Below, piece by piece: positions 28,591 to 55,230 of a stretch of DNA of 64,000 bases. Below the pieces are notes generated by a model. That model worked only from the letters and a program-made list of their open reading frames with translations. It was not told the origin of the DNA and searched no databases. Made by a program: the position numbers and the translations under genes. The DNA is from Candidatus Multivorans sp. (GTDB taxonomy: Bacteria > Acidobacteriota > Thermoanaerobaculia > Multivoradales > Multivoraceae), in contig OZ245033.1 of assembly GCA_965224025.1 (NCBI GenBank), forward strand, positions 3,488,001-3,552,000, in the 5' to 3' direction. The stretch's first letter is position 1, and the number at the start of each line of letters is the position of its first letter.

Positions 28591-31500
28591 CTAGCTGCCC
28601 CGGAGCGCCGGCAGCAACTCCTCCCGCGTTACCCGGCGAACCGCGGCGAGGCCGGCCAGGGTTCCGGCGGCCATCACCAGCAGCAGAGTCAGGCCGAGGG
28701 AGAGCCAAGGAACCAGTGCGTGGCCGCCGAGCAGGTGCGGGCTGACCGCGACCAGCGCCGAGGCGGCGCCGACCGCGACCCCCGCGGTCAGGACAAGGCC
28801 GTTCTCGGCCACGACGAGCCAGGCGAGGGCGCGCCGCCAGAAGCCGATCGCCTGCAGGGTCGCAAGTTCGCCGCGGCGCTCGAGCAGGTTCCGGAGCAGG
28901 ACGACCGCCAGTCCCAGCGTGCCGAGCAGGAGGCCGAGTCCGCCCAGGGTCTGGAACGTGCCGAGATACGTGTTCTCGACCGCCTGAAACGCCTGTAGCC
29001 GAGCTGCCGTGGGGACCGCGTCGAAGCCGAAGCCGCCGAGTGTTCGCTCGAGTTCCTCCACCGTGCGGTCCTGCTCGCCGGGCGGAGTCCGCAACAGGAA
29101 GTAGGAGGCGCCGGTCCGGCTCGGGAAATGCTCCGCCAGGTTCGCTTCCGAGATCACGAGTTCACTCTGAAACACGCTCTTGCGCAGCAGGCCGACCAGC
29201 CGCAGCTCGACCGTCTCGCCGCGTTCGGTCTCGATTTCGATTCCCTGCCCGATGCCCGAGTGCAGGATCCACATGACCGAGTTGAAATCGCCGATCGCGG
29301 GGATGACTCCGCGACCGAGATCCTTCTCCAGCAGCCTCCAGGGCTCGTCCCCGGCGCCGTCTACGAGCGACTGGAAGCGGAAGCCGCCCCGGGCGATCAG
29401 CTCCGGCGGGGCGCCCAGCAGCCGCGGACGCTCGGGCTGGAACAGGTTCAGGCAACTGATGTCGTCCCCGGGCACCGTGCGGAAGGCGACGACCTGGCTC
29501 CGTGCGATCAGCTCGGAGGCCTCCTCCCCGAAACCCAACTCGAAACGACCGTCCACGCTGGTCAGGTCCGCGAGAACCGAAACATCCGACTCCGCGACCA
29601 GGTCGAAGCCGCCGGCGCCCGATTCCAGGTCCCGCGTTTCCTCGCCGAAGCGCAGGCCGTAGGCGCCCACGGCAACGATCACGAACGACGCGCTGGCCAC
29701 CAGAGCCGCGCAGAGCAGGCTGCGGCCCGGGTTGAGAGACGCGTTCGCCGCCGCCATGCGCGAGCCGGCGCGCAGCGACCAGCTCTCGAGCGGCGCCGCC
29801 GGGCGCCGCCGGAGCCAGAGAGTGAAGCCCGCCAGCCCGGCGATCAGGAGGCAGGCCCCGCCGCCGAAGAACAGGTAGGCTCCGATGGACGCCGGCGCCG
29901 CCGCTGAGCCTCCGAGCAGCACGGCGGCGACCGCGCCGCCGACACTTGCTGTCCAGCGGGCTCGCCGACCCGGTACCTTGGCCGCCGGCGGTCGGTCCGA
30001 GGTCTCGCCGCGCAGCAGCCGGATCGGGGAAACGGCGGCAAGCCGACCGACTGCGCCGCGGACGGCGAACAGCACGACCAGAATGGAGGCCGCGCCGCCC
30101 ATGGCCAGCGTCAGGGGCTCGACGTGCAGATAGAGGTGGCTCGAACCGACCGCGGATCGCCACAGGGTCCGCAGCGCGGCCATCATCGCGCCGGCATAGA
30201 GCACCGCGCCCCCGAGGCCAAGCAGCACGCCCGCACCGCCCAGCAACGCTCCCTCGACCAGGAAACGGCGCCGGACGCGCACAACGCCGTAGCCGAGCGC
30301 CAGCAGCAGGCCCATTTCGTTCGCGCGGCTCTCAGTTCCCAAGCGGAAGAAGAGCCCCACCAGGAGCCCGGCCGAGACGATGAGAAACAGGCTGAAGCCC
30401 AGGAAGAGGCCGCCGAAGTCCGTGGCGCCCGAGGCGCCGCGCAGGCCCGCGGCCTTCACCGGCTCGACCGCGAGGCCGGCCGCGTGGAGGGCGATCCTCT
30501 CCGGCAACTCCTCCTCGAGCGTTGCCCGGAGCTGCTCGGGCGTGACGCCGGCCGGCGGCAGCAGCCGCAGCGAGGTCAGGAAACCGAAACGGCTCGACCA
30601 GAGCTCGGCGCCGTAGTCGAGGCCGACGAACAGCTTGGGGGTGGCGCGGTACTCGTCCCAGTAGGCCTCGTCCAGATCCCGGATCCGGCTCAGGTCGACC
30701 GGGAAGGTCGGATCCCAGTCGCTCATGTTGTCGGCGTCAGCGACCCCGGGGAAGTCCGGCGTCAGCGTCCGGTCGCCGCCCCAGCCCGTCATCTCGACCA
30801 CCCCCGCCACCCTGGTCTCGACCGTCCGCTCGACCAACTGCTCCCGGTCGCCAAGCTGGAAGAACTCGATCGCCAGGCGGTCGCCTGCTACGACCGAGAG
30901 ATCCTCGGCCAGGAACGAGTTGACCAGGACTTCGGCCCGCGCCAGCGCCGGGGCCGGGCGGCTGTCCGTCAGTCGCAGGGCCCCCAGTTCACCCGCCCGC
31001 GCCACGTCAAGCGCCGCGATCGTCGAGTAGGGAGCGGCGGCGCCGCTCTCGGCCGCGGCCCGGTTGGCGAGGTAGGTCGAGATTGCGATCGTCTCGGCGC
31101 CGCGCTCCGATGCCGCGGCCTCGACCTCCCCGGCCAACTCGGCGCCGAGGATGATCTGGGATGTGGTGACCAGCAGATGGTCGTCCGTCGCCTCGAGCGT
31201 GAGTCCAAAGTCCGCCACCTGGGCGTGGGCCCGAACGACACGTTCGACATCGGCCGCCGCGGCCTCCGGATCGGCGGCCGCCCCGCCATCGCCATCCGCC
31301 CGCTCCCCGACCAGCAGCGAGTTCACGAGGTTGCGCCGATCAAGCTCCCGCTGCAGGTCGCGCAGGCGGAGATAGCCGATGAGCGGCTGGCTCTGGTGCG
31401 GGGCGAGCTGGAAGCGGCCGGGCCCCTCGTCCTCCAGCACCGAGACCACGCTCAGCCGCACGCTCTCCAACTGGTCTTCCGGGTCCTTCTCGCCCATCAG

Positions 31501-32031
31501 GCTTGCCCGCGGCGCTTCGCTCGGCCGCTCCAGGTAGAGCACCACGGAGTCGCCGGGCTCGACGGCGAGAGCCGAGGCGAGGGACCGGTTGATCGCCAGC
31601 GACGCGAATAGTTGACCGTCCCGCCGGGACAGGTCGAGGACCTCGTCCATGCCCGGGAAGAAGGCGGCGAAGCCGTCGTCGATGCCCTGGACGGCGACCC
31701 GGGCCGCGCGCCGGCCGCTCTCCGGCGCCACCACGCTGCCTTGCATCAGAATCGCCGCCGACACCGGGCCGTAGCGGGCGGAAAACTCGGGATCCCCCAT
31801 CAGTTCATCCCGCAACCGCTCCCGGAAGAAGCCCGCGCCGAGCAGCGCGTGATCAATGCCGCCGAGACGGTCCAGCGTCAGGTCGCGCAGGCTGCCGCGC
31901 ACCGAGTCGCCCACCATCAGAGCCCCGGTGAGCACCGACGCCGCCACCGCCGCGGTCAGCACCACGGCGACGTTCGAGCGCCAGTAGTGCCGCAGACTGG
32001 GAAGAAGCCCGCTGGGCCTGGCGGCACCCAC
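28591..32031 (-). CDS. Large FtsX/MacB-like ABC transporter permease (duplicated)
   Basis: HYWRSN...VLTGALMVGDSVRGSLR; two FtsX-like TM blocks (EMGLLLALG; ERRGELATLQAIG); GTG at 32031. Confidence 0.88.
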   Translation of the reverse strand: MGAARPSGLLPSLRHYWRSNVAVVLTAAVAASVLTGALMVGDSVRGSLRDLTLDRLGGIDHALLGAGFFRERLRDELMGDPEFSARYGPVSAAILMQGSVVAPESGRRAARVAVQGIDDGFAAFFPGMDEVLDLSRRDGQLFASLAINRSLASALAVEPGDSVVLYLERPSEAPRASLMGEKDPEDQLESVRLSVVSVLEDEGPGRFQLAPHQSQPLIGYLRLRDLQRELDRRNLVNSLLVGERADGDGGAAADPEAAAADVERVVRAHAQVADFGLTLEATDDHLLVTTSQIILGAELAGEVEAAASERGAETIAISTYLANRAAAESGAAAPYSTIAALDVARAGELGALRLTDSRPAPALARAEVLVNSFLAEDLSVVAGDRLAIEFFQLGDREQLVERTVETRVAGVVEMTGWGGDRTLTPDFPGVADADNMSDWDPTFPVDLSRIRDLDEAYWDEYRATPKLFVGLDYGAELWSSRFGFLTSLRLLPPAGVTPEQLRATLEEELPERIALHAAGLAVEPVKAAGLRGASGATDFGGLFLGFSLFLIVSAGLLVGLFFRLGTESRANEMGLLLALGYGVVRVRRRFLVEGALLGGAGVLLGLGGAVLYAGAMMAALRTLWRSAVGSSHLYLHVEPLTLAMGGAASILVVLFAVRGAVGRLAAVSPIRLLRGETSDRPPAAKVPGRRARWTASVGGAVAAVLLGGSAAAPASIGAYLFFGGGACLLIAGLAGFTLWLRRRPAAPLESWSLRAGSRMAAANASLNPGRSLLCAALVASASFVIVAVGAYGLRFGEETRDLESGAGGFDLVAESDVSVLADLTSVDGRFELGFGEEASELIARSQVVAFRTVPGDDISCLNLFQPERPRLLGAPPELIARGGFRFQSLVDGAGDEPWRLLEKDLGRGVIPAIGDFNSVMWILHSGIGQGIEIETERGETVELRLVGLLRKSVFQSELVISEANLAEHFPSRTGASYFLLRTPPGEQDRTVEELERTLGGFGFDAVPTAARLQAFQAVENTYLGTFQTLGGLGLLLGTLGLAVVLLRNLLERRGELATLQAIGFWRRALAWLVVAENGLVLTAGVAVGAASALVAVSPHLLGGHALVPWLSLGLTLLLVMAAGTLAGLAAVRRVTREELLPALRGS

Positions 32032-32035
32032 GCTT

Positions 32036-32737
32036 TCAGTCTCCGGTCGCCCGCGCCGGCGGCGGCTCCCCGAGCAGGCCGCCCCGCAACTCGACCCGCC
32101 GCGGCAGGCGCGCCGCCAGTTCGAGGCTGTGGGTGACGACGATGAGGGCGCTGTCGCCCTCATCGTGAAGTGCGAACAGCAGATCGGCCACCGCCGCGGC
32201 GGTCTCGGCGTCCAGATTGCCGGTCGGCTCGTCGCACAGGAGCAGGCTCGGCCGGTTGATCAGCGCGCGAACGATGGCGGCGCGCTGCCGCTCACCGCCC
32301 GACAACTGCGCCGGCCGGTGGTCCACGCGGGCGCCGAGGCCCACGGCCTGGAGCAGGCGCCGGGCACGCTCCTCCGCACCGTTCTCACCGCCTCCGGCAG
32401 CCACGGTGGGAAGAAGCACGTTCTGCAGCATCGTGTACTGCGGCAACAGGTAATGATCCTGGAACACCAGGCCGACGCGACGGCTCCTGAACGCCGCCAG
32501 TTCGCGTTCGGGCAGGTCGTGGGCAGCCTCGCCGCCGATCCGGATGCGGCCGGAGGTCGGTTTCTCGAGCGTCGCGGCGAGATGCAGCAGGGTGCTCTTG
32601 CCGCTTCCCGAGGGCCCGGTCACGGCCATGGCTTCCCCCGTCTCGAGCACGAAGGAGATGCCGCGCAGGACCTCCAGGGCGCCCGCCTCGGTCTCGTAGG
32701 ACCTGGTGACCGCCTCGAACTCGACCGCCTCCGACAT
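32036..32737 (-). CDS. LolD/MacB-type ABC ATP-binding protein
   Basis: GPSGSGKST, HRPAQLSGGERQR, LCDEPTGNLD; start MSEAVEF at 32737. Confidence 0.93.
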   Translation of the reverse strand: MSEAVEFEAVTRSYETEAGALEVLRGISFVLETGEAMAVTGPSGSGKSTLLHLAATLEKPTSGRIRIGGEAAHDLPERELAAFRSRRVGLVFQDHYLLPQYTMLQNVLLPTVAAGGGENGAEERARRLLQAVGLGARVDHRPAQLSGGERQRAAIVRALINRPSLLLCDEPTGNLDAETAAAVADLLFALHDEGDSALIVVTHSLELAARLPRRVELRGGLLGEPPPARATGD

Positions 32738-32861
32738 CGCCCACGGACAATAGCAACTGGCGCCCGGCGGCCTGGTACGGGCGCCGCACACCGGGCCGGC
32801 GTGCGCTCGAGCCACCAATCCCAGTCGAGGGCGACGACCGAAGACTACCGACCCTGCCGCT

Positions 32862-35800
32862 TCACTCCACCTCGAAGTGAATCACTTCCGTGAAGTCGTG
32901 GGAAACGAAGTTGCTTGCCCGGTCGTAGAGCGTCATGTCGGAAACCCCCCAGATTCCCGGCGCCGAGCCCGGCGGCAGGACATGCACCACGAAGTGCACC
33001 TTCCACTCGTGGGGATCATCTCGCGGAAAGACCAAATCGCTCTCGTCATCCTTGGTCCAGACATGGTGGGTTATGCCCTGTGGATCGAGAAAGTCGATCC
33101 CTGCGTGCGTATAGCCCGAAATGTCGTCGCGGACGCGAAACCTCAGCCTGACGACCGTTTCACCGTTCGGTTGATCGGGATTCGTGGGCTCCGCGTCGAC
33201 ACTTATCCTGTTCAAATCGAGCTCGGGCGCCTCTGTGTCCGGGTTGGCCGTATCGAGTCGGATGCGTTGAGGCGCTTCGTCCCTGGTCCTCCTCGGTGAA
33301 GAAGACGCGAGTCCAATTGTGGGCCCGATCGCCCATCTTTATGTGGTTCAGGGAGTAGGTCGAAGACGGCATGTAGTCCGGCATGAGAAAGTCCACCTTG
33401 CACAGCTTCTCCGCAGGCCGGAAGTCGTCGTACTTTTCCAGCCGATACGTGTTGGGAATCTCGTCGTTTATGGAGGCGTAGCATGCCTGGCGCTCCAACA
33501 TCACGTTGTTCTCGTCCACCCGCCAACTCGCCTCGATCGACTGAACAACCCGGCCCTCTATTACGTCCTGGCCCTTGCTCAGACGCGCTGATCGAGGAAC
33601 ATACTCAGGCGCCGTCCAGTCCTCGAGGGCGTTGTCGATGTAGAGCTTCCATCCAAAGTCCGCATTCCGCTGGAACCGTTGATTGCCGCTCGGATCGGTG
33701 ATGACGAGCTGCGACGCAAACCAGTAGCCTGCCTTGGTGTGCTTGCTCAGCGTCGTCTTGCCAACAAGAACGGTGCTCACCTCGGCGTCGTTGCCGTTCT
33801 CGTCTACGGGGTAGAAATGCAGCTCGAAGAAGGTACCCGTACTGCTCATCACCCGCGTGTATGCACGGGCGGCGCCCTCGAGAATCCTGTCGAGCGCATG
33901 CAATTCGAGTTCAATGTGGACTTCCTTGTCTTCGTCCGGTCCGCCCGTCACGGCGATGTCCACACGACGAACCTTGCCGGGAAACACATAGTCGGGGAAC
34001 AGGTTGTACACGGTGAACGTCAAGTCCTCCCGGATCTGCGAGATGTACAGATTTCCCTGCATGATCCGGTCCCGCACGAACTCGTACTTGGCAACGGATC
34101 GGGACCTCAACTTGTCCGGCTCGATGATGAAGTACGAGATGGTCTCGGCCATGTCCTCGTTGGGGTTCTTCTCGTGCCCGTACGCGGAAACGAACTCCGT
34201 CTGCTTGGTGGTGGACCAGTTGGACGGGCTTTCCGGATCCCGATACCAGCCGCCAAGTTCGATCCACTCGTCCCGGGTCGCCTGGTCAAAGACATGAGCC
34301 CAGAGAAAGTGCGCTTTCTCGTGGATCACCAGGCGCTGGATGTGGTCGACGTCGCTCGAAAGGAAGGCGCTGTCCATGAACTCGATGTAGCCCGCGCCCG
34401 GCCAGGCGACGGCCGGCGCCTCCGGGTACAGGGGATGAGGCGTGCCGTCGAGGCGCCGGATGAGGTGCTTGAGGCCCTGCGTCTTGTGCATGCCGCTTGG
34501 AAACTCCTCAAGCATGTTGAGCAAGGTGTTGATCTCCTCGGCGTGGAAGCGCTGGAAACGCCCCGGACCTTCGTTGCCGGTCGGCCACGTGAGAGCGGCG
34601 TAGTCGGTTATCTCCGTCGTGACGCCGTAACGTTCCCGGAAGATTCTCTCGTAGGCGCCTCGGTCGCGGCCGTTGTCCGTCACGTAGCGCACGAGTGCGT
34701 GGTGCAGTCGTTTCGAGAACCAGATTCCCCGCTTTCCGTCCACCGTGACCACGCGCGGATTCGCATTCACGAAGGCGGCCTCGGAAACCAGGACGGCGGG
34801 GAAACCCCGGTCGGTCCTGACCTGGATGTCGCCGTGAAGGAAGCTGGGCGTCAGCAGCCACTGAGAAGGAGCCAGTGACTGTTCGCCGTAATGACTCATC
34901 ACCTCTTGCGGGATGGAACGGATGGTCGTCAGCAGCCGCCAGGCGTGTTCCTGCGACCAGGAAGCGTCGTCGGAATCCACGAGCAGAATGTTGTAGTCAT
35001 GTGCCAGGATGTTCGCGGACGAGTTGTCGGCCACGGTGACCGTTTCACCTTCGAACTCGACCTCGAGTCGTCTGTTGACGGCCGCCGAATACTCGGTGCC
35101 CGCGGTGCTCTGATCCTCTTCCCAGTGGAAGACGAACGGGTCCGCAGGAATCGGCGTCAGGTCGAACGGTTCGAAGGGATCCGTATGCGGAAGAGTGATC
35201 AGCCGTGCCGGCGTGGCGCGGTAGCCCTCCGCGTGCACCTTGACGGCGTACTTGCCGGCGGCGAGGTCATGGAATCCGAACCAGCCGGAAGGGTTTGGGT
35301 TCGTGACCCGGAGAACGCTCTTGGCGGTAAGCAGCACTTCGACGTCCTCGTAGGCGCCGCGATAGCCGATGACCTGGCCCTCGAACGAGTGCTCTCCTTC
35401 GGCGGGGTCGTCGTCGGCACAGGCGAACGCCTCGAGGTCGCTCCTCGCCGCGGCGGTCTGGTTGAGGCGGTTCGTGTGCGTCCAGGCGGTACCGCCGCCG
35501 AGTCGCTCGATCGAGAGGTTGAACGCGAGAGTCGTCACCGGCGCGACGAACGCCCAACGGTGGCCATTGACGGCACACCCGTCGAGCACCTTGATCAGTA
35601 CCTCGGCATTGTCGCGCTCGAAGAAGTACAGGATGGCTGATTGCCGGGAGTTCAGATCGTAGTCCCGCACCTCCTCCAGCACCGGTTCGCCATCTCTGAG
35701 GTGTTCGACGCACATGTTGACAATGAAGCCGCTGCTGAGAGTCGTCACGGGTCTGGGCACGCAATCCGTGGTTCCGCCGGCGCCGATGCTCCGAGTGTCA

Positions 35801-36423
35801 GCGATCCGCGGCGGCGACGGAGCGCCGGCGGGCGTCAGTGACGTCTGTGAAGCCGGCCAAGCCGGAAAGTCCGCATCGACGAGGTCTACTCCATTGATGC
35901 CGCCGCTGCGAGCCGCCGTGACCGTGGAGGAATCAGCCGGATTGCAGGGGAAGGCTAGAAGGTCGCTCTTTGTCGTCGCGGTTTGACCGCCGCGCGGGTT
36001 CCGGTGCACCCAGGACTTCCCGGTAGCCGTCTCGTCGACGCGCAGGTTGAACGCCAGCGTCGTCACCGGCGCCACGAACACCCACCGGTGGTCGTTTACC
36101 TTACAGGCGTCGAGCACCTTGATCAGCACCTCGGCGTTGTCCGGATCGAAGAAGTAGAGAAGGCCCGACTCCCGCGACCCGAGCCCGAAATCGAACGCGT
36201 CCGCGCGCACCGACTCGCCGTCTCTTTCGTACTCGATGCACATGCTCACCGTGTACCCGTGTTCGAACGTGATCTGCGGCGCCGACGGCACGCAATCGGT
36301 GTACGTAGCTGGTTCCGCGGCCGTCCGCGAGATGCCGCCGGTCTCGGTGCCGATGGTCTGACCTTGAACGGTCCCCGCGCCCGTCAACGCCAGCACGCAC
36401 ATCGGGAAGAGCTTCTTTCGCAC
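32862..36423 (-). pseudogene. Large secreted Zn-metallopeptidase-like protein, frameshifted near 33281-33295 (pseudogene or sequence error)
   Basis: ORF 33160-36423 has a signal peptide, two repeat domains, HEKAH and VSAYGHEKNPNEDMAE. Coding-like sequence continues in another frame (DEAPQRIRLDTANPDTEAPELDLNRI...DFTEVIHFEVE) to 32862. Confidence 0.7.
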
Positions 36424-36474
36424 GGGGCCTCCTCTTGCCTACGCCGAACTGCTGCCAAGAAGATGCCAACAACT

Positions 36475-39320: not shown

Positions 39321-39604
39321 CCGGCGCCTTCCCGAAACGCCGCCGCGCTCCCTCCGCCGGCGTCCGCGGCCTCCCCCGAGCCCGTACCGGTCGCCAGGCG
39401 ATCGAGTTCGGCGGCGGGCCAGGCGCTTCGAACCAGCCACCACATGGTCGCAACCACCGCGGCCGAGAACAGGATGTGGTAGGTCAGTCCGATCGGCGGC
39501 CCGAGGAACCGGCTGCCGTCATTCCAGAACCAGAGGTCGTTGTGGAGGAGGTACAGGACCGGCAGCGCCGCGTACGCCAGCCGCCGAACCGCCGTCGCCG
39601 CCAT
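39317..39604 (-). CDS. DUF3311-type small membrane protein (SSS partner)
   Basis: LYLLHNDLWFWND...LGPPIGLTYHI, two TM segments, directly upstream of the SSS gene. Confidence 0.8.
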   Translation of the reverse strand: MAATAVRRLAYAALPVLYLLHNDLWFWNDGSRFLGPPIGLTYHILFSAAVVATMWWLVRSAWPAAELDRLATGTGSGEAADAGGGSAAAFREGAG

Positions 39605-39624
39605 GGACTCCGCGGGCCTCCGGG

Positions 39625-40914: not shown

Positions 40915-41069
40915 CGCCGGGAGTCTATGGCAGGGAGCCGATGCCGGCCACACGCAACCTGGACGACTTCCTTCCCGTAGTGCCGGTTGGTGTAGCCTGA
41001 GATCTTGATGCAAACGGCGAACGCGAGGTTCCCGGCGCGCCGCCCCAGAGTTTCGAGAGGTACCCGCCC

Positions 41070-43469: not shown

Positions 43470-43471
43470 GA

Positions 43472-43494
43472 GTCCGCGCTGCGGCAGCGCGGAC
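43472..43494. terminator. Perfect hairpin between convergent genes
   Basis: GTCCGCGCTG-CGG-CAGCGCGGAC. Confidence 0.55.
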
Positions 43495-43563
43495 GCGCAT
43501 GGAACGGGGCCGTGCATGTCGGCTGGTTGCCCGGCGCTCTCTAGGCGGGGCACCGACTTGTCT

Positions 43564-43590
43564 CTGGGTGCGCGGGCCTTCTGGCCCGCA
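43564..43590 (+). repeat. REP-like palindrome CTGGGTGC-GCGGGCC-TTCT-GGCCCGC
   Basis: Hairpin with a 5' CTGGGTG foot; degenerate inverted copy at 28344-28367. Confidence 0.55.
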
Positions 43591-43686
43591 TCCGCCGCAG
43601 GCGGAATCCGACTTGGCAGCGCCCAGTTTCATGCAGGCTAGCGTGCAGGGAAGTGGCGGCCACGGGGTGCGCCGCGATCCTCGCGA

Positions 43687-45036
43687 TCAGGTGTAGCGCG
43701 CGCCGCGGTACTGCTCGTCGTAGAACCGCGGCAGGAGCTGGTCGACGCGCAGAAGGCCGCCTTCACTGAGCTCGATCCGCTCCGGCCCGACCGTGGCCAG
43801 ACCCTGTTCGGTCAGACTGCCGAAGGCGTCCGCGTAATCGACGGCGACGTCGACGCCGAACTTCCGCCCGAAAGCGCCCCGCTCCAGCCAGCCCCGCTTC
43901 AACTGGAGGATGAGCTCGCGGGTCAGACGCTCGCGGGGTGTGGTCGCGAGAGCTCTGCGAGTGGCCAGACCGCCGCCCTCGATCGCGGCCAGGTAGTCGT
44001 CCCAGCGGTCATGGTTTTGCAGATGGACGCCGCCCATGTGGCCGAACGATGAGACGCCGATCGGGATCATGTCGGCGCCGCTCCAGACCTCGCGGGCATA
44101 GACGAACTTGCAGCCCCGATCCCGCCGCATCATGGTGTAGGCGCTCCAGCGCTCGAAGCCGGCCCGCTCGAACTGTTCGAAGGCGTAGGCGTGCCACTCC
44201 CGCTTGGTGCGCCAGTCGGCGAACGTGGGCACGTCGGCCTCTTCCCGAAGCCGCGCCTTGGAGTACACCGTGTTGAAGGGAAGCTCCATCTGGTAGAGGG
44301 TGATCGAGTCCGGGTCGTAGTCGATCGTGAGTTCCACCGTCCGCTTCCAGCTCTCCCAGGTCTCTCCGACCATGCCGGCGATCAGGTCGACGTTCAACTG
44401 CCGAAAGTTCTGCGCGCGGATCCAGTCGCGCACCCGGTAGATCTCCTTCGACACGTGGGCCCGGCCGTTTTCCTCCAGGATCCCGTCGTCGAAATTCTCA
44501 ACGCCGAGGCTCAGCCGCGTGACGCCGATGCTTCGGATCGCCTCCAGCTTGGACTGCGTCAGCGTCCCGGGCTCGCACTCGAACGCCACCTCCTCGGCGC
44601 TGTCCCAGGGCGCCAAGCCCTGCAGCCGCTCCGCTAGCGGAATCAACTGCTTGGCGGCGATGTAGGACGGCGTGCCGCCGCCGAAGTAGACGAAGTCGAG
44701 CTTCCGGCCCCGGATTGACGGACGGTCCGCGTAGCGTTCCAGCTCCAGGCCCAGCGCGTCGAGGTAGCGCCCGATCTGCTCGTGGTTCTTGTCGATGTAG
44801 ACCCGGAAGTAGCAGAACTTGCAGCGCTTGCGGCAGAACGGGATGTGGATGTAGAGGCCCAGGGAGGCGCCGGGTACGGGCTCGCGGTCGAGCGCCGCGA
44901 CCGCCTCCCCCACCGAGGCCTCGTTCCAGGCCGAGTACGGTGGGTAGTTCGACACGAAGACCGAGCCGATGTCGGTTGCTTCGAGATCGAGCAGGCCGGT
45001 TGCCGGCTCCGCCATCGTGGCGGCGCGTTCACTCAT
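43687..45036 (-). CDS. HemN-like (coproporphyrinogen III oxidase family) radical SAM protein
   Basis: LYIHIPFCRKRCKFCYF (CxxxCxxC), YFGGGTPS, RLSLGVENF, NVDLIAGM; start MSERAA at 45036. Confidence 0.9.
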   Translation of the reverse strand: MSERAATMAEPATGLLDLEATDIGSVFVSNYPPYSAWNEASVGEAVAALDREPVPGASLGLYIHIPFCRKRCKFCYFRVYIDKNHEQIGRYLDALGLELERYADRPSIRGRKLDFVYFGGGTPSYIAAKQLIPLAERLQGLAPWDSAEEVAFECEPGTLTQSKLEAIRSIGVTRLSLGVENFDDGILEENGRAHVSKEIYRVRDWIRAQNFRQLNVDLIAGMVGETWESWKRTVELTIDYDPDSITLYQMELPFNTVYSKARLREEADVPTFADWRTKREWHAYAFEQFERAGFERWSAYTMMRRDRGCKFVYAREVWSGADMIPIGVSSFGHMGGVHLQNHDRWDDYLAAIEGGGLATRRALATTPRERLTRELILQLKRGWLERGAFGRKFGVDVAVDYADAFGSLTEQGLATVGPERIELSEGGLLRVDQLLPRFYDEQYRGARYT

Positions 45037-45076
45037 TCTTGCAACCCGACGTATCTCCGCCACCCGGAAGGGCCGT

Positions 45077-46306
45077 TCATCCGAAGCAGTACAGGATGCC
45101 GTCAAGGCTGCCGATGACGAGCCGTTCCGAGGCCACCGCCGGCGAGGCGACGATGGCCGAACCGGTGTCGTACTCCCAGACCGGCGCCCCGGTCGCCTTG
45201 TCCAGGGCATGCACCAGGCCCCGCTTCGAGCCCAGGAACACACGGTCGCCCACGATCACCGGTGACGAGTCGAGCCGCGCGCCGCTGTTCCACTGCCACT
45301 TCCGCTCGCCGGTCGCGGGGTCCAGAGCATGCACGATCTTGTCCCGGCCGCCGATGACCACGATCTCGCCGTCGGCGGCGGCCGATCCGTAGTACGGGAA
45401 CTTGCGGACCTCGTGTTCGTAGCCCCAGACGACCCGCCGGCGTTCCAGGTCGACCCCCAGGACTTCGTTCTCGAACGTCCCGACATAGGCAAGCCCATCG
45501 ACCACCGCCGGGCTCGAGGCGGCCTGCCCCCGGAGGTCGATCTTGTGGACCGTTTCGCCGGTCTCGATGTCGATCAGCCACATGAAGCCGTCGCAGCCCG
45601 ACACCGTTGTAAGCCCATCGGCCACTGCCGGCGTGCCATGGACGTAGCCTTCCGTTTCCACCTGCCACAGCTTCTCGCCGCTGTTCCGGTCCAGGCAGTA
45701 GAGCGAGTTGTCGTAGGAGCCGACGAGCAGCCGGTCGCCGTGCAGGGACACGCCGGCGTAGATCTCCCCCAGCGTCTCGAACTGCCACTTCTCTTTGCCG
45801 TTCGCGGCGTCCAGCGCGTGAATGAGGCCGTACTCGTCGCCGATGTAGACGATGCCGTCGAAGACCGACAGGGGCGCCTTGATCGGCGTTTCCGCGTCGA
45901 AGCGCCAGAGTTCCTTCCCGTCGGCCAGGGTCACGGCGTAGACCCGGCCCTCGTAGTCACCGAAGAAGACGACACCCTCCACGATCGCGGCAGTACTCTC
46001 GATCTCGCTCTCGGTGTCGAAGGTCCAGAGCAGCTTCGGCTCCTCCGGCAGCGTCGTTCCCGCCACGCCCGTGCCCAGCAGGTTGCCGCGGAACACGGGC
46101 CAGGCATCCGCGGCAGGTTTGAGCAGGGCGTTCTTCGTCGCCGGATCCGGGTCCCCGCCGTCCCCTGCCGTTGCCGCAGTTCCGACGGCAACCAGCCCGC
46201 TGAGCAACAACATCGCGGCCGGAATCGCGTTTCCGCCCAGACGCGAAGGCGCCCGCACCACTGGGGCGTGGCGCCGGCGGCCTCGAAGGTGGACGATCTC
46301 TAACAT
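45077..46306 (-). CDS. PQQ-binding-like (BamB-like) beta-propeller protein, exported
   Basis: WPVFRGN, repeated A.D..TG...W motifs, SSPAV, SGCDG; alternative start 46213 (MLLLSGLVAVG). Confidence 0.88.
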   Translation of the reverse strand: MLEIVHLRGRRRHAPVVRAPSRLGGNAIPAAMLLLSGLVAVGTAATAGDGGDPDPATKNALLKPAADAWPVFRGNLLGTGVAGTTLPEEPKLLWTFDTESEIESTAAIVEGVVFFGDYEGRVYAVTLADGKELWRFDAETPIKAPLSVFDGIVYIGDEYGLIHALDAANGKEKWQFETLGEIYAGVSLHGDRLLVGSYDNSLYCLDRNSGEKLWQVETEGYVHGTPAVADGLTTVSGCDGFMWLIDIETGETVHKIDLRGQAASSPAVVDGLAYVGTFENEVLGVDLERRRVVWGYEHEVRKFPYYGSAAADGEIVVIGGRDKIVHALDPATGERKWQWNSGARLDSSPVIVGDRVFLGSKRGLVHALDKATGAPVWEYDTGSAIVASPAVASERLVIGSLDGILYCFG

Positions 46307-46359
46307 GGCGGATACGAGGGCAGCGGCCTGCGGTTGGGAGCGATGCGGCGCCGCACGCC

Positions 46360-47607
46360 TCAGAATGCCGCCTGGTAGAGGTTCAGCATATCGGAGGCGG
46401 TGACGGCCCGCGGATTGAACTGCGCCGTCCACTGCTTTGAAGCCTGGGAAGCCAGCACATCGAGATCCGCCTCCCGGACACCCAGATCCCTCAACCGGCC
46501 GGCAACGCCCGCGCGCCGGCGAAGGCCTGTCCAGGAATCGGCAAGCCGCGTGCTCACGGGTCCGTTGCCGGCCTCGGGCCCGTCGAGCAGCCGAACGAGC
46601 CCCAGGTAGCTCGTGTCGCCGGTCTCGCCGTTGTAGCGGACGACGTGATCCAACATGACGGCCACGGCCACGCCATGGGTGATGTCGTAGCGCGCGGTCA
46701 GTGGATTCGCCAACCCGTGGGCCGCGCCCAGCATCGATGCCTCGATCGCCGCGCCGGCAAGGTGAGCCCCGAGCATCATGTCGCCCCACAAGCCGTCGAT
46801 CCTGGCGTCCAACTTCGAGTTCGGCGTCGTCAACCTCGAATCCGGCGTCGCCGGAAGGCCGCCGGGCTGGGCCTCGGCGACGACCTTGAATCCGCGCAGC
46901 AGACGCCGGAAGCCCTCGGAGGAGTACATCCGGGAGTAGGGGTTGGCCGCGGTCGCAACGAAGCTCTCCATGGCGTGGGAGAACGCGTCCAGGCCCGAAG
47001 CCGCCATGACCTGGGGCGGCGCGGTGCGTGCGAGTTCCGGATCGAGCAACGTGGCCCGGAACCGTGCCTTCGGGTCGCCACAGGCCATCTTGCGGTGGTC
47101 GTCCTCGCGAGAGATGACGGCAAAGGACTGTGCCTCGCTGCCGGTCCCGGCCGTGCATGGCACGCCGATCGACGGGAGCATCGGCCTGGTGGCCTTTCCG
47201 AAGCCCCAGTAGTCCTCCATCCGGCCGCCGTTCGTCAGGACGAAATTCGCGCCCTTGGCGCAGTCCATCGCCGAACCGCCCCCCAGACCGACCAGGAACG
47301 TGGCCTGGTGGGCCCGCGCCGCAGCGGCCGCGGCGGCTACGTGGCGCTCGCCTGGATTCTCTTCGACATCGTGGAAGACGGCGACCTCCAGGCCGGCGCT
47401 CCGCAACGACGCGGATGCACGGTGGACATGTCCGGCCGCAGCTACCCCCGCGTCCGTGACCACCAGTACGCGCCCGCCGCCCAGTTCGTGGACGAGGTCG
47501 CCGAGGAGGGCAACGACGCCCGCGCCGAAGAGAACCCGACCGGGCGCCGTGTCGACACCCCAGGAATCCTCCGTATCGAGCGGTCGCTGACCTCGCTTGA
47601 TGACCAC
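46360..47607 (-). CDS. Iron-containing alcohol dehydrogenase
   Basis: GLGGGSAMDCAK, PCTAGTGSE, DAFSHAMES, GAAHGLANPL, THGVA. Confidence 0.93.
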   Translation of the reverse strand: MVIKRGQRPLDTEDSWGVDTAPGRVLFGAGVVALLGDLVHELGGGRVLVVTDAGVAAAGHVHRASASLRSAGLEVAVFHDVEENPGERHVAAAAAAARAHQATFLVGLGGGSAMDCAKGANFVLTNGGRMEDYWGFGKATRPMLPSIGVPCTAGTGSEAQSFAVISREDDHRKMACGDPKARFRATLLDPELARTAPPQVMAASGLDAFSHAMESFVATAANPYSRMYSSEGFRRLLRGFKVVAEAQPGGLPATPDSRLTTPNSKLDARIDGLWGDMMLGAHLAGAAIEASMLGAAHGLANPLTARYDITHGVAVAVMLDHVVRYNGETGDTSYLGLVRLLDGPEAGNGPVSTRLADSWTGLRRRAGVAGRLRDLGVREADLDVLASQASKQWTAQFNPRAVTASDMLNLYQAAF

Positions 47608-47736
47608 GACTGCTTCGGCGCGTCCCCCCTAGCCCCAGAATTCCTCGGCTACGCCTCGGCATTCTGGCCCAACCCGTCCTCGACCGGACTCTGCACGTAC
47701 GAGTCTCACTGCGTTTCCGTTTCGCCGCGCAGAGTC

Positions 47737-49176
47737 TCAGTCGGATCCGATCGCGAACACGTCGGAGCGCGTGGCGACATAGATCCGGCCGTCCTCGGCA
47801 ACCGGCGTCGTGTAGACCGCCGAGCCCATGTTCTGCTCGGCGACCACCTTCTCCTCGCGACCCGTCTCGAGCACGACGATGTCCCCATCCTCGTCCCCGA
47901 GGTACACCTTGCCGTCCGCCACGAAGGGCGAACCCCACACCGCGGCGAACGTGTCGTGAGTCCAGAGGTGTTCGCCGGTGGCCACATCCAACACGTAGAG
48001 GAAGCCGCTCAGGTCGGTGATGTAGAGGAGACCCTCAGCGATGGCCGCGGTGGAGATCGTGCGGTTGAACTCCTCGCCGCCGAAGTGCCAGAAGGCCGCG
48101 CTGTCGGTCACGTCGCCTTCGACGTTCGCGTCCAGGGCGTACAAGTGTCCCTGTCCTTCACCGTGCTCGGGGTCCTGACCGACGCCCAGGTAGAATCGGT
48201 TGTTGTAGAAGACGGGCGTCGAGATGATGTTGTTACGGGTGCCTCCACCCCCCAGTTCCCAGACCGAGTCCTTGGGGTTCAGGTCGAACTTCCACAACAG
48301 CTTGCCGGTCGCGGGCTCGTAGGTGTAGAGCCAGCCGTCGCCGCCCGGGAAGGCGATCTGCGGCTGGCCGTCGACGACGCCGTACGCCGGGTTGGACCAC
48401 GAGCCGTGCAGGACGGCGTCGCTGCTGTCGATGCTCTCCCAGACCAGTTCGCCGGTGTTCTTGTTCAGCGCGATGAAGGTCGGCGACGCCGGCGAGGGGA
48501 GGTTGATGTGCCCCTCGTCGACCCCGGCGCCGGTGACCGTGAACAGCAGGTCGCCGATGACCAGGGGCGAACCGGCCGCCAGGTTGTGCGGGAACACGTC
48601 GAGTTCGGCGATCATGTCGTACTCCCACACGATGTCGGCGTCGAGTTCCTCACGGTACTGCTCGTCGGTCATGCCGTCGTTCTTGCCGTCGCGGAAGCCG
48701 TCCACGTCCACGGCCACGACCGTGGCGCGGTTCGACACGTAGTAGACGCGTTCGTCCTCGACGAACGGCGTGGAACACACACCCTGCAGCGGCCAGTCGT
48801 TGACCCGGCCGGCCCCCAGCTTGTCGTGGGTCGCCTGCCACAGGAGTCCGCCCGTCGCCTTGTCGAGGGCGATGACGACTCCCTTGTCGCCCTCGATGCC
48901 GCCGCGCCGAAGACCCTCGTTGTTCGTTCCGACGAACACTCGTCCGTCACGAACCACCGGGCCGGCGTACGTCTGGGAGCCGACCTTGGCCCGCCACAGG
49001 ATGTTGTCACCGCTGCGAACGTTCCATTCGGTCGGCAGGCCCGTCGCGTCGGAGACCATGTTCCGCGAAGGCGTGTTGCCGAACATCGCCGGCGGCTCGG
49101 GATCCGCAGCCGCGATCGGTGTCGATACCGCCCCGGCGAGAACGAGCGCCAGAAAAAGAGAGAGTCGAGACTTCAT
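47737..49176 (-). CDS. PQQ-binding-like beta-propeller protein, exported
   Basis: Signal peptide, MFGNTPSRN, VFVGTNN, NDWPLQGVCSTP, WGSPFVADGKVY. Confidence 0.9.
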   Translation of the reverse strand: MKSRLSLFLALVLAGAVSTPIAAADPEPPAMFGNTPSRNMVSDATGLPTEWNVRSGDNILWRAKVGSQTYAGPVVRDGRVFVGTNNEGLRRGGIEGDKGVVIALDKATGGLLWQATHDKLGAGRVNDWPLQGVCSTPFVEDERVYYVSNRATVVAVDVDGFRDGKNDGMTDEQYREELDADIVWEYDMIAELDVFPHNLAAGSPLVIGDLLFTVTGAGVDEGHINLPSPASPTFIALNKNTGELVWESIDSSDAVLHGSWSNPAYGVVDGQPQIAFPGGDGWLYTYEPATGKLLWKFDLNPKDSVWELGGGGTRNNIISTPVFYNNRFYLGVGQDPEHGEGQGHLYALDANVEGDVTDSAAFWHFGGEEFNRTISTAAIAEGLLYITDLSGFLYVLDVATGEHLWTHDTFAAVWGSPFVADGKVYLGDEDGDIVVLETGREEKVVAEQNMGSAVYTTPVAEDGRIYVATRSDVFAIGSD

Positions 49177-49290
49177 GGTGATCCAGTCCGTAGGTCGAAT
49201 GAGCGTGTGGGCTGCCGCTGGCGAGGACCAGGAGAATCCGGCCGCGACGACCGGTCACCGCGCCCGCGCCGCCGAAGGGCGGCAACGGTA

Positions 49291-50706
49291 TCAAAGGGTC
49301 TGAAGCGCGTAGAGGGTGTCGCTGGTTGCGAGGTACAGGACCGAGCCTTCAACCGCCGGCGACGTGTAGACCGCCAGTGGCATGACGTTCTCCGCAAGCA
49401 CGTCGAGCGTCCGGCCGCTCCGCAGGACCGCCACGTCGCCCTCCGTGTCGGCCGCGTAGACCTTGCCGTCCGCGACCAGTGGCGAACTCCAGAACGGCGC
49501 CAGGGCATCGTAGACCCAGAGCTTCTCGCCGGTAGTCGCGTCGAGAGCGAACAGGAAGCCGTTCAGGTCCGCCGCGTAGACGATGCCGCCGGCCACCGCC
49601 ACGGTAGCGATCGCACGGCCGAAGTCCGGGTCCTCGAATCGCCACCGGACGCCGCTTGCGGTGACGTCGCCGCTGCCGGCGGCGTCGATTGCCCACAGGA
49701 CGCCCGGCCGCAAGGAAACCTCCGGATCCCGGCCCATGGCGATGTAGACCGTGTCCTTGTGCAGGACGGGCGTTGCCACGAAGGCGTGACGACTTGCGCC
49801 GCGCGCGGCGCTCGTGGTGCCGTCAGCGCCCCGGGCCGCGTTGCCGTCGAACCGCCACTGGGCCTTGCTGGTGGCCGGATCGAACGCGTACAACGAGCCG
49901 TCGCCGCCCGGGAAGATCACCTGCTCGCGGTCGTCCACCCGGCCATACGCCGGGCTCCCCCACTGGCCGTCGATCAGGCCGGGCCCGGGGCTGGCGTCGC
50001 TCCACACCAGATTGCCGGTCGACCGCTCCACCGCGACGAAGCTGGGTGCGTCCGGGGCAGGCACCTGCCCGTCATCCGTGACCCCGTTGCTGGTCGACGC
50101 GAACACGAGGGCTCCCAAGGCAAGCGGCGTCGAGGCCGCCATGTGCTTCGGGAACACGCCCCACTCCGCCAGCATGTCGAGCGACCAGGCGGCGTTGCCT
50201 GCCAGGTCCACCGCCGTGAGCTGGCCCCGGTTGGAGACGTAGTAGAGCCGCTCGCCGTCGAACGAAGGCGTCGAACAGACGCCCTGCAACGGCCAGTCGT
50301 TCGCCTCCCCCGTCTCCAGCTTCTCGTGGATGATCTGCCAGCGGAAACTGCCGTCACGCCGGTTGAAGGCCATGAGCACGCCGCGGTCTCCCGTCACGGA
50401 GGGATCGCGAGGGCGCTCGTTGTTCGTGCCCACCACGATCAGGTCGCCGGCGATGGTCGGACCGCCGTAGGTCACGGTGCCGAGCCCGGCGGACCAGAGG
50501 ACGTTCTCACCCGAAGAGACGTCCCAGGAGACCGGGAGGTTCTCGGCCTCTGCTACGCGATTACGCCCGGGGTTCGGATCGTCGGCGCCTGAGGCCGCAA
50601 CCGGCGTCGAGACCGCCAGGACGGCGACGAGCCGCGTGGCGGTCGCGCGACCCAACGTAAAGCCCACTTTCCATCTGGACGTCCGAACGGAAAACAGACC
50701 TTCCAT
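49291..50706 (-). CDS. PQQ-binding-like beta-propeller protein (paralog of 47737-49176)
   Basis: IVVGTNN, NDWPLQGVCSTP, WSSPLVADGKVY; start uncertain. Confidence 0.88.
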   Translation of the reverse strand: MEGLFSVRTSRWKVGFTLGRATATRLVAVLAVSTPVAASGADDPNPGRNRVAEAENLPVSWDVSSGENVLWSAGLGTVTYGGPTIAGDLIVVGTNNERPRDPSVTGDRGVLMAFNRRDGSFRWQIIHEKLETGEANDWPLQGVCSTPSFDGERLYYVSNRGQLTAVDLAGNAAWSLDMLAEWGVFPKHMAASTPLALGALVFASTSNGVTDDGQVPAPDAPSFVAVERSTGNLVWSDASPGPGLIDGQWGSPAYGRVDDREQVIFPGGDGSLYAFDPATSKAQWRFDGNAARGADGTTSAARGASRHAFVATPVLHKDTVYIAMGRDPEVSLRPGVLWAIDAAGSGDVTASGVRWRFEDPDFGRAIATVAVAGGIVYAADLNGFLFALDATTGEKLWVYDALAPFWSSPLVADGKVYAADTEGDVAVLRSGRTLDVLAENVMPLAVYTSPAVEGSVLYLATSDTLYALQTL

Positions 50707-50740
50707 CCGGCCGTCTCATCGACCGGGTCGCGGAGTGCCC

Positions 50741-51844: not shown

Positions 51845-51866
51845 TGACGCGATGACCTCTCGGAAT

Positions 51867-52292
51867 CTACTCCGCCGGTTCCAGTTCGTGCGACACCATC
51901 CAGTTGACGCCGAAGCGGTCGGTGCACATCCCGAAGTAGGAGCCCCAGAACGTCTCTTCCATCGGCATCGTCGCCGCGCCTCCATCCGACAGCCCGGCGT
52001 GGAGCGCATCGGCCTGTTCGCGGTTCTCCGCCGCCACCGAGATCGAGAAGTTGTTGCCGACCTGAAGCGGCGGCCCGAACTGCGGGCTGCTGTCGCTGCC
52101 CATGAGGACGCTGTCGCCGACCGGAAGCGAGACGTGCATGACGCGATCCTTCTCGTCGTCTCCCACCCCCATGTCGTCCGGCCCTTCGCCGAAGGTCGTG
52201 AAGACCTGGTACTCGCCGCCAAAGACGGAGCGGTAGAACTCGAACGCGTCCCGGCAGTTGCCGTCGAAGGTCAGGTAGGTGCTGAGCGCCAT
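51867..52292 (-). CDS. VOC family protein (PhnB-like)
   Basis: YLTFDGNCRDAFEFY, VMHVSL, FWGSYFGMCTDRFGVNW. Confidence 0.92.
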   Translation of the reverse strand: MALSTYLTFDGNCRDAFEFYRSVFGGEYQVFTTFGEGPDDMGVGDDEKDRVMHVSLPVGDSVLMGSDSSPQFGPPLQVGNNFSISVAAENREQADALHAGLSDGGAATMPMEETFWGSYFGMCTDRFGVNWMVSHELEPAE

Positions 52293-55219: not shown

Positions 55220-55230
55220 GGAGAGGGACT

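Follow-up and report, generated by a model that had tools for sequence, protein, structure and literature searches.

Do eleven neighbouring genes in an acidobacterial genome form a biosynthetic cluster, and, if so, what might that cluster make? The question is raised by 64,000 nucleotides of Candidatus Multivorans sp. (Acidobacteriota, Thermoanaerobaculia; GenBank assembly GCA_965224025.1, contig OZ245033.1, positions 3,488,001 to 3,552,000 of the forward strand), hereafter the window, in which an earlier note had proposed an uncharacterised biosynthetic or envelope-modification cluster. Its members are three PQQ-like beta-propeller proteins, an iron-dependent alcohol dehydrogenase (Fe-ADH), a HemN-like radical SAM enzyme, a flavin-dependent halogenase-like enzyme (FDH), a DUF3311 membrane protein with a sodium:solute symporter (SSS), a GT4 glycosyltransferase, a LolD/MacB-type ATP-binding cassette (ABC) ATPase and a large FtsX-type permease. 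We find that the set is more than a chance neighbourhood, because it is conserved in other genomes: all eleven genes have counterparts beside the same FDH subfamily in at least three other species from several phyla.

Conservation elsewhere was the central check on the proposed set, and the set passed it. Starting from 20 aligned FDH homologues, we scanned species-representative genomes and took 10 kb of flank on each side of every hit. The scan gave 594 pattern matches, at least 329 of which encode relatives, and 80 loci (denoted by L numbers) were kept, the best being 53% identical among the matches listed. Thirty loci with an FDH at least 40% identical were treated as close and the 50 more distant ones as far, and the window proteins were searched against all of them by tblastn. 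The radical SAM gene was found in 15 of the 30 close loci, on the FDH strand and 28–7128 nt upstream of the FDH gene, and in 2 of the 50 far loci (L039 and L077). Other members likewise recur around close FDHs and are nearly absent around far ones. In the close set we found propeller 3-like genes in nine loci (matches of at least 200 bits, eight of them on the FDH strand), GT4 in eight, SSS in eight (38–63% identical and downstream of the FDH gene), the ABC ATPase in six (49–64% identical), Fe-ADH in four, the FtsX permease in three (L003, L004 and L005, 42–46% identical) and propeller 2-like genes in three (L015, L017 and L020, 52–53% identical). GT4, ATPase and permease had no match at the far loci; SSS, Fe-ADH, propeller 3 and propeller 2 (38% identical) matched there in L039 only, a true relative whose FDH is cut by a contig end. 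Fe-ADH matches are 42–50% identical and lie upstream of the radical SAM gene (L004, L008, L015, L016 and L039). Propeller 1 is a paralogue of propeller 2 and is 39–41% identical to open reading frames (ORFs) in L015, L017 and L020 that propeller 2 also matches.

The host genomes are labelled Thermoanaerobaculia, Vicinamibacterales, other Acidobacteriota, Latescibacterota, Poribacteria, Planctomycetota, Verrucomicrobiales, Opitutia and Ardenticatena (Chloroflexota). Gene order in one acidobacterial locus, L008, is nearly identical to that of the window: Fe-ADH, propeller, radical SAM, TonB-dependent receptor, FDH, DUF3311, SSS, GT4, thioesterase and ABC genes. Planctomycetota and Verrucomicrobiota loci carry the radical SAM–FDH pair with several other members, which bears out the earlier note's mention of similar gene sets in Planctomycetota–Verrucomicrobiota–Chlamydiota (PVC) bacteria. 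Locus L019, from the cultured Aeoliella straminimaris ICT_H6.2, contains the lyase-like gene described below together with FDH, DUF3311, SSS, GT4, thioesterase and ABC genes. In a quick maximum-likelihood tree of 75 FDHs, from which six loci with short matches were excluded, the window FDH falls in a clade of 28 (Shimodaira–Hasegawa-like approximate likelihood ratio test support 97). Of the 17 FDHs that have a radical SAM neighbour, counting that of the window, 16 belong to this clade. Softer support comes from 11 longest-contig sizes common to the FDH and radical SAM homologue lists, three of which (11,894, 39,365 and 89,707 nt) are below 90 kb. The FDH is the hub of the cluster and belongs to a distinct FDH subfamily. 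One far locus, L077:8769-11113 from a Verrucomicrobiae metagenome-assembled genome (MAG), has an FDH-like gene 26% identical to that of the window with a HemN-like gene (30% identity, 123 bits) directly upstream, and the radical SAM–FDH pairing may predate the clade considered here. Two FDHs from genomes labelled Alcaligenaceae and Bifidobacteriaceae (L014 and L017) nest among those of Planctomycetota and Vicinamibacterales, and these bin labels may be wrong.

The WxWxIP flavoenzyme had been called halogenase-like, a description that is well founded by sequence. The protein, 442 or 429 aa long from a GTG at 40953 or 40914, exceeds the gathering score of Trp_halogenase PF04820 (66.8 bits versus 21). 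Its nearest solved structures are bona fide FDHs with E values from 3e-58 to 3e-42: 8zop (3e-58), 5buk, 5bva/5bul, 3e1t, PltA 5dbj, ChlB4, CmlS and RadH. Several of these solved halogenases act on a thioester-tethered pyrrole or phenol. All expected motifs are kept: GxGxxG occurs as VIGAGPGG and WxWxIP as WFWYIP, with G26, G28, G31, W234, W236, I238 and P239 invariant in 20 homologues, and FxxPxxSxG occurs as FSFIDPVYSSG, with F318, D320, P321, S324 and G326 invariant in the same set. K87 is invariant there too and aligns with the Lys of 'fqrK', 'fpkK' and 'fpdK' in 8zop, 5buk and 5bul, which we take to be the catalytic Lys that bears the halogenating species. No named NCBIfam equivalog is reached (CmlS 182 bits versus 900; geranylgeranyl reductase family 122.5 versus 158.8), and a literature search on 8ZOP found no source paper for this nearest solved relative. 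The closest FDH homologues, 84–91% identical, include proteins labelled Holophagales by NCBI (85–91% identical) and others labelled Thermoanaerobaculia, which would probably place the organism in the Holophagae or a neighbouring acidobacterial lineage; no relatives as near as these are among the genomic loci listed.

The radical SAM enzyme scores below every NCBIfam cut-off (ChuW/HutW 182 bits versus 400, STM4012 166 versus 380, HemN (TIGR00538) 158 versus 325, HemW 146 versus 205), with PDB matches to HemN 1olt (8e-33) and NocN (5e-23). Its CxxxCxxC motif and GGGTP region are kept, C68, C72, C75 and F118-GGGTPS being invariant in 22 sequences, whereas the fourth Cys of HemN (CxxxCxxCxC), which is important for HemN proper, is absent (CRKRCKFCYF in the window versus CHKLCYFCGC in HemN). 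We rejected a housekeeping role as HemN or HemW on three grounds: no cut-off is reached, the fourth Cys is lacking, and linkage to the FDH gene is tight. The protein belongs to a tightly conserved subfamily of its own, in which 14 sequences from several phyla share 90 invariant positions; L007 and L011 were excluded from this count, their gene being in two pieces. Homologues of 58–68% identity are annotated merely as 'coproporphyrinogen III oxidase family', and the HemN_C domain (PF06969), precomputed for many of them, is not reported by Pfam for the window protein. We know of no characterised class C radical SAM enzyme with a halogenase partner, and our literature searches found no paper on a halogenase with a HemN-like neighbour. 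The two-piece matches, at L007:8499-9807 and L011:8495-9803 (both Acidobacteriota), could stem from an assembly error or from a frameshift. Reactions described for class C enzymes are methylation and cyclopropanation of sp2 carbons in aromatic or conjugated substrates, and opening of the haem ring (PMC10114718).

Clues to a substrate come from genes that accompany the pair in other genomes. The ORFs of 31 loci were clustered, scanned for domains and searched in a second tblastn round, which revealed extra recurrent families. A gene for a chorismate-lyase-like protein of ~190 aa lies directly upstream of the FDH gene in nine loci, six of them planctomycetal. The family profile matches PDB 2nwi at 5e-6 and aligns with Escherichia coli UbiC over 110 columns (hhalign E 1.2e-3, probability 19%); Pfam gave no match to the family, and 10 of 120 listed homologues carry the JGI label chorismate-pyruvate lyase. 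Three loci (L004, L005 and L020) encode a PaaK-type ligase with scores all below cut-off (PaaK 276 bits, the flexirubin ligase FlxY 166, BagE/FevW 106). An aldehyde dehydrogenase (ALDH)-like protein occurs in three loci, a 4HBT thioesterase in 13 and a small membrane protein in eight. In an Ardenticatena MAG (Chloroflexota; L024:8072-12028), genes for a DAHP synthase, a sulfotransferase and a GNAT protein flank an FDH of the same subfamily, which hints at a sulfated shikimate-derived phenol. The lyase-like, ligase, thioesterase and ALDH-like genes of these loci suggest a hydroxybenzoate-type aromatic acid as substrate. Around the core stand interchangeable supply modules, namely the lyase, or the ligase with the thioesterase, or importers alone. 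Searched against the window ORFs, profiles of the extra families returned a generic receptor match only, and the window contains a reduced version of the cluster with an inserted pseudogene.

Importers are the supply module that the window retains. The SSS protein stays below all NCBIfam cut-offs (sss superfamily 141 bits, PanF 110, PutP 100, MctP 48). Its pairing with DUF3311, whose Pfam score is just below cut-off, is supported by position, by ATGA coupling and by DUF3311-like ORFs at the same place in eight loci. In the one study of a DUF3311–SSS pair by experiment that a full-text literature search turned up, the pair is the pyruvate permease locus MctP (PMC9100948), and by that precedent a carboxylate substrate fits the symporter, though the MctP model itself reaches only 48 bits here. 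A possible second route of uptake is the TonB-dependent receptor, which the earlier note had regarded, together with a broken gene, as an interruption of the set. The broken gene is confirmed below, but the receptor is more than an interruption: in L002, L003, L004, L005 and L008 the same slot, between the radical SAM and FDH genes, is taken by a TonB-dependent receptor gene on the cluster strand. The window receptor reaches 153 bits with the siderophore-receptor subfamily model TIGR01783, below the cut-off of 223.5, whereas those of L004 and L005 exceed it (263 and 245 bits); their next match is the catecholate receptor Fiu, below its cut-off. The window gene is inverted relative to L003 and L008, and a search around it for inverted repeats found short imperfect pairs only, with no sign of an inversion mechanism. 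We regard this receptor as a positional analogue whose orthology is unsupported, because it is only ~28% identical, over short stretches, to the receptors of the five loci.

Possible downstream steps are suggested by the remaining members. The GT4 enzyme passes both Pfam cut-offs (Glycos_transf_1 88.5 bits versus 26.4, Glyco_transf_4 33.8 versus 28.5); C22, C25 and C171 are invariant in seven sequences (the window and six full-length orthologues), and its nearest solved structures, at E values of 7e-10 or weaker, are MshA, an SPS-like enzyme, BshA and PimA. The ATPase scores 236 bits with LolD, short of the equivalog cut-off of 307.75, 190 with MacB and 160 with the DevA family. The permease, 1146 aa from a likely GTG or 1190 aa as the longest ORF, exceeds the FtsX cut-off of 25.5, carries its FtsX domains at the C-terminus, reaches the ADOP family with 42 bits, far below cut-off, and found no relative in a sequence search of solved structures. 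Among NCBIfam models the Fe-ADH scores highest with ErcA (248 bits versus a cut-off of 550), and the solved structures nearest to it are those of methanol dehydrogenase, 1,3-propanediol oxidoreductase and lactaldehyde reductase. All three propellers have N-termini that, judged by eye, look like signal peptides.

Taken together, we propose, with a probability of roughly 0.45, that this conserved multi-phylum cluster would carry out halogenation and radical one-carbon chemistry on an imported aromatic carboxylate, followed by glycosylation and MacB-type export. The substrate would be a hydroxybenzoate-type aromatic carboxylic acid. Elsewhere it might be supplied by the chorismate-lyase-like enzyme (in Planctomycetota, Verrucomicrobiota and some Acidobacteriota), or through PaaK-type CoA activation and release by the 4HBT thioesterase. 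In Candidatus Multivorans the acid would need uptake, because no lyase, ligase, thioesterase or ALDH-like gene lies within the 64 kb, and the DUF3311–SSS carboxylate-type symporter, perhaps with the TonB-dependent receptor, could provide it. The FDH would then halogenate the ring, and on the same molecule the radical SAM enzyme might add or rearrange a one-carbon unit or carry out some other radical step. The Fe-ADH, joined elsewhere by the ALDH-like protein, could tune the oxidation state of a side group, and the GT4 enzyme would attach a sugar. Finally, the LolD-like ATPase and the large FtsX permease would act as a MacB-type machine that expels the product from the periplasm, the predicted site of the three exported propellers.

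Several observations weigh against this proposal. The radical SAM–FDH pair is not obligatory: among the 15 close loci that lack the radical SAM gene, six have less than 4 kb of upstream sequence, and the other nine have at least 5.4 kb of upstream flank in which the gene is missing. The chemistry of the radical SAM enzyme is not fixed, because no curated family cut-off is reached, and neither a carrier protein nor a clue to a methyl acceptor is present. Pfam scans of the cluster genes revealed no flavin reductase domain. The lyase assignment on which the substrate partly depends is moderate only (no Pfam match, 19% hhalign probability), and hidden Markov models of the lyase-like, ligase, thioesterase, ALDH-like and small membrane families found nothing among the 798 ORFs of the window. 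The propellers are left without an explanation. As to precedents, which are compared in full below, BaaB of the proposed baaA-baaB locus is only a putative member of this FDH clade. In addition, the authors who defined the 'Halo_AMP' clusters of sponge microbiomes concentrate on a subgroup that contains a P450 and lean towards small brominated peptidic products (bioRxiv 10.64898/2026.08.03.742642).

Could the tailored molecule instead be a public good? The product, an aromatic acid acting as metal chelator or another secreted molecule, would then leave through the MacB-type pump and return through the TonB receptor. MacB-type pumps do export pyoverdine, receptors stand between the radical SAM and FDH genes in five loci as well as in the window, those of L004 and L005 pass TIGR01783, and the Halo_AMP preprint also reports TonB transporters (10.64898/2026.08.03.742642). 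We nevertheless regard a metallophore-like role as unlikely: planctomycete and verrucomicrobial versions have no receptor, that of the window scores 153 bits, below the cut-off, and is at most a positional analogue of the others, no nonribosomal peptide synthetase (NRPS) or NRPS-independent siderophore synthetase is present, and no iron-regulation signal was found, although no proper search for one was made. The same importers would serve a catabolic or salvage route, in which imported (halo)aromatic acids are CoA-activated and degraded, hydroxylation or dehalogenation falling to the FDH-like enzyme and an oxygen-independent step to the radical SAM enzyme. The SSS, TonB receptor, PaaK-type ligase, 4HBT thioesterase, ALDH-like protein and Fe-ADH are typical of aromatic acid catabolism, the pairing of ligase and 4HBT thioesterase resembles the 4-chlorobenzoate pathway, and a core biosynthetic enzyme is absent. 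Degradation is nonetheless improbable, as none of the halogenase motifs, the Lys included, is lost from the FDH, the lyase-like gene of nine loci and the DAHP synthase of L024 would supply an aromatic acid rather than consume it, GT4 and exporter genes lie in the same operon, and no ring-cleavage or beta-oxidation genes are conserved.

Envelope modification, which the earlier note had entertained, would have the GT4 enzyme glycosylate a (halogenated) lipid, a DevCA/LolCDE-like ABC system move it outward and the BamB-like propellers assist. Weak matches to DevA (160 bits) and DevC (20 bits) fit this idea, as do the matches to BrtI, a component of the bartoloside glycolipid exporter, reported for Halo_AMP clusters (10.64898/2026.08.03.742642), and among the products of planctomycetes are chlorinated fatty acids and alichondrichlorin, in which 4-hydroxybenzoate is esterified with a chlorinated long chain (PMC12078418, PMC11848864). 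A lipid product seems quite doubtful all the same. No lipid-building gene is conserved in the annotated loci, and no ketosynthase, carrier protein, acyltransferase or fatty-acid gene is found among the conserved families, ORFs shorter than 80 aa not having been examined; the ligase is of the aryl/phenylacetate type, and among the nearest solved GT4 structures MshA and BshA have small-molecule acceptors, PimA being a lipid enzyme. Much less probable still is a small halogenated peptide or RiPP-like product (RiPP, a peptide made by ribosomes and modified after translation), as suggested for sponge symbionts by the Halo_AMP authors, whose hypothesis ties an FDH, a stand-alone adenylating enzyme and a radical SAM enzyme to brominated peptidic products (10.64898/2026.08.03.742642). 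An S9 peptidase gene does adjoin the window cluster, yet it lies on the other strand and has no counterpart in the 80 loci; no precursor-sized conserved ORF, ATP-grasp, cyclodipeptide synthase, NRPS or P450 gene occurs in the window or the annotated loci, and the radical SAM–FDH gaps of 28–200 nt leave no space for a precursor gene between them. The earlier statement that polyketide synthase (PKS), NRPS and RiPP cores are missing likewise holds in Pfam scans of the window genes and of the ORFs of the scanned loci, in which ORFs below 80 aa were not searched systematically. As for an accidental gathering of unrelated genes, most window genes are on the minus strand anyway and the set is split by a plus-strand gene and a pseudogene; conservation excludes this explanation for practical purposes, since all eleven genes recur beside the same FDH subfamily in at least three species and several phyla and are nearly absent around 50 distant FDHs.

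Beyond the proposed halogenation, one-carbon chemistry and export, a more speculative scheme, which we think improbable, would have the FDH and the HemN-like enzyme perform an unrecognised two-enzyme chemistry on a hydroxybenzoate ring, such as a one-carbon transfer coupled to halogenation, and perhaps the 'missing' methylation of a dibromo-anisic type. The resulting widespread halogenated and glycosylated metabolite of at least five poorly cultured phyla would be recaptured in Acidobacteriota and Latescibacterota through the siderophore-type TonB receptor, as a new class of metallophore or shared signal.

Within the window (G+C 0.63–0.72), true genes were chosen from ORFs, codon-position GC (third positions) and Pfam and NCBIfam domain matches, and all eleven were confirmed on the minus strand from 50706 down to 28591 (Table 1). 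They had been described as often overlapping, which does not hold: the only true overlaps are the two ATGA junctions, DUF3311/SSS and SSS/GT4. The ATPase stop is 4 nt from the FtsX start, and the remaining intergenic gaps are 20–130 nt. The TonB receptor gene lies on the plus strand, where it converges with the radical SAM gene and diverges from the FDH gene, and the set thereby splits into two transcription units. Co-orientation by itself is unremarkable here, since the minus strand holds ~22 of the 26 long coding-type ORFs of the window. A promoter and terminator scan of 32500-52400 gave one promoter-like and two terminator-like sites, not above shuffled sequence, which leave the operon limits undefined.

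Table 1. Positions, strands and domain matches of the cluster genes and the two genes lying among them.
Feature	Position	Strand	Domain match
Propeller 1, PQQ_2/BamB-like, 471 aa	49291-50706	-	PQQ_2 94.5 bits
Propeller 2, PQQ_2/BamB-like, 479 aa	47737-49176	-	PQQ_2 99.5 bits
Fe-ADH, 415 aa	46360-47607	-	PF00465 157 bits, ADH_Fe_C 111 bits
Propeller 3, PQQ_2, 409 aa	45077-46306	-	PQQ_2 182 bits
HemN-like radical SAM enzyme (class C type), 449 aa	43687-45036	-	Radical_SAM 74 bits
TonB-dependent receptor, 799 aa	41070-43469	+	Pfam Plug and TonB_dep_Rec_b-barrel
Flavin-dependent halogenase-like enzyme (FDH)	39625-40953	-	Trp_halogenase PF04820 66.8 bits
DUF3311 small membrane protein, 95 aa	39317-39604	-	Pfam DUF3311 27.4 bits, cut-off 30
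SSS, 485 aa	37863-39320	-	Pfam SSF 128 bits
GT4 glycosyltransferase, N-terminal CGSC, 463 aa	36475-37866	-	Glycos_transf_1 88.5 bits
Frameshifted gene, ~1187-aa exported HExxH protein	32862-36423	-	Two ORFs in different frames
LolD/MacB-type ABC ATPase, ~233 aa from likely ATG	32036-32737	-	ABC_tran 116 bits
Large FtsX-type permease	28591-32031	-	FtsX 60 bits, two stretches

The gene between the GT4 and ATPase genes had been called a broken peptidase, and it is indeed broken. Its main ORF, 33160-36423 (1087 aa), ends in an out-of-frame tail, and a second ORF, 32862-33215, lies in another frame. The closest intact relative (P0362, 1187 aa, 61% identical) matches the main ORF with residues 18–1046 and the second ORF with its last 117 residues (1070–1186, 64% identity), so that the two are frames of one P0362-like gene and a frameshift or sequencing error is indicated near 33215-33290. 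The name 'peptidase' stands less firmly, resting solely on HExxH and on sub-threshold Peptidase_Mx matches in relatives. The protein has two N-terminal repeats of ~120 aa, a weak CarboxypepD_reg match and the motif HEKAH, and its family is very large (7303 representatives at E <=1e-3). The gene has a G+C content of 0.63–0.64 against 0.67–0.72 nearby, has no homologue in any of the 80 loci, drew a blank in a sequence search of solved structures and fills the slot taken by the 4HBT thioesterase in L003, L004, L005, L008 and L019. It is a lineage-specific insertion outside the conserved set.

Genes at the borders of the cluster are local as well. Co-oriented upstream of propeller 1 lie a short-chain dehydrogenase/reductase (SDR)/epimerase gene (50741-~51830; HpnA-like at 68 bits, far below cut-off) and a glyoxalase-like gene (51867-52331), with gaps of ~35 nt; they may be co-transcribed here as local operon additions, and were ruled out as conserved members, having a counterpart in none of the 80 loci. 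The same tblastn search found no counterpart of the window's receptor, its broken gene or the S9 peptidase, whose gene (25840-28332) is on the opposite strand.

Further out, a defence island at 52973-63972 lies directly upstream of the cluster, with slightly lower G+C at 56–60 kb. It contains a GajB-like UvrD helicase (76 bits), a HEC-01 pair (HEC-01B at 55231-56004, 221 bits; HEC-01A at 55932-57152, 407 bits), a Type III methyltransferase (57209-60343, 1389 bits) and a ResIII/endonuclease protein (60937-63972) without a PADLOC match. On the other side, two large resistance-nodulation-division (AcrB-type) pump genes at 13428-21564 enclose a membrane-fusion gene (16775-18295), all on the minus strand. 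A DUF7133-HEAT-cytochrome c protein is encoded at 11075-13423, 26 kb from the FDH gene, and a protein with the same domains is encoded directly beside the FDH gene of Stieleria bergensis (L018:6615-9764), which may be a coincidence.

Rule-based genome miners are blind to halogenase clusters that have no PKS, NRPS or RiPP core, and the present cluster is conserved in several phyla that are dominant in soil, sediment, sponge and marine-particle communities. The constant HemN-like partner, the interchangeable supply modules and the siderophore-type receptor embedded in some lineages provide handles for searches and tests. Should the chemistry be confirmed, class C radical SAM enzymes would gain a new reaction partner, and a source of natural organohalogens would be named in Acidobacteriota, Planctomycetota and Verrucomicrobiota.

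The cluster maps to no characterised pathway but has already been noticed, as baaA-baaB and as 'Halo_AMP'; our literature searches found no paper that characterises it. Among established pathways, bmp of marine bacteria is close in logic, a chorismate lyase feeding a halogenase. The window FDH is related to 5bva/5bul (~5e-51), which we take to be Bmp2. Bmp5 and Bmp6 are brominase and chorismate lyase, Bmp5 being a different, single-component enzyme. The carrier protein, P450 and pyrrole-forming genes of bmp are not in the window cluster, whose radical SAM enzyme, GT4 and MacB-type exporter have no bmp counterpart. With the class C enzymes ChuW/HutW, MenK/MqnK, TbtI, NosN/NocN, C10P and Jaw5 (PMC10114718), the window enzyme shares the fold family, to judge by sequence, and CxxxCxxC with the fourth Cys absent; its top NCBIfam score is that of ChuW/HutW, yet below cut-off. 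The exporter is like MacB, LolCDE and DevCA systems in having an FtsX permease next to a LolD/MacB-like ATPase, whereas its permease (1146 aa) is far larger than LolC/E or the permease parts of MacB, the window cluster has no membrane-fusion or outer-membrane partner gene, and no curated cut-off is reached.

The two precedents are closer. Adjacent genes for the chorismate lyase-like BaaA and the FDH BaaB were proposed by Panter et al. (2019) to make 3,5-dibromo-p-anisic acid in Planctomycetales strain 10988; that proposal came without genetic validation, and its methyltransferase is not in the locus and was sought elsewhere in the genome (bioRxiv 10.1101/723874). Adjacent lyase-like and FDH genes likewise stand in nine of the related loci. 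The window has no lyase-like gene, and the baa proposal names no radical SAM, GT4, symporter or ABC genes. The 'Halo_AMP pseudoclass' is a bioinformatic grouping of sponge-microbiome clusters defined by an FDH and an AMP-binding gene, hosted by Acidobacteriota, Latescibacterota and Poribacteria, with Bmp2 as the best FDH reference match; its reported content comprises a PaaK/BagE-like stand-alone adenylating enzyme, an unclassifiable radical SAM enzyme, PQQ-like domains 'at high frequency', a glycosyltransferase, a thioesterase, TonB and ABC components (bioRxiv 10.64898/2026.08.03.742642). By description, this architecture is that of L004 and L005, and an FDH with an AMP-binding gene is found in L004, L005 and L020; the 64-kb window has no AMP-binding or PaaK-like ORF. 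With neither a lyase-like nor an AMP-binding gene, the window lacks the defining feature of both baaA-baaB and Halo_AMP, and it shares the core and most accessory genes of these clusters. As its constant partner the FDH has the HemN-like radical SAM enzyme and not the adenylating enzyme by which Halo_AMP is defined, and the cluster extends to free-living Acidobacteriota, Planctomycetota and Verrucomicrobiota.

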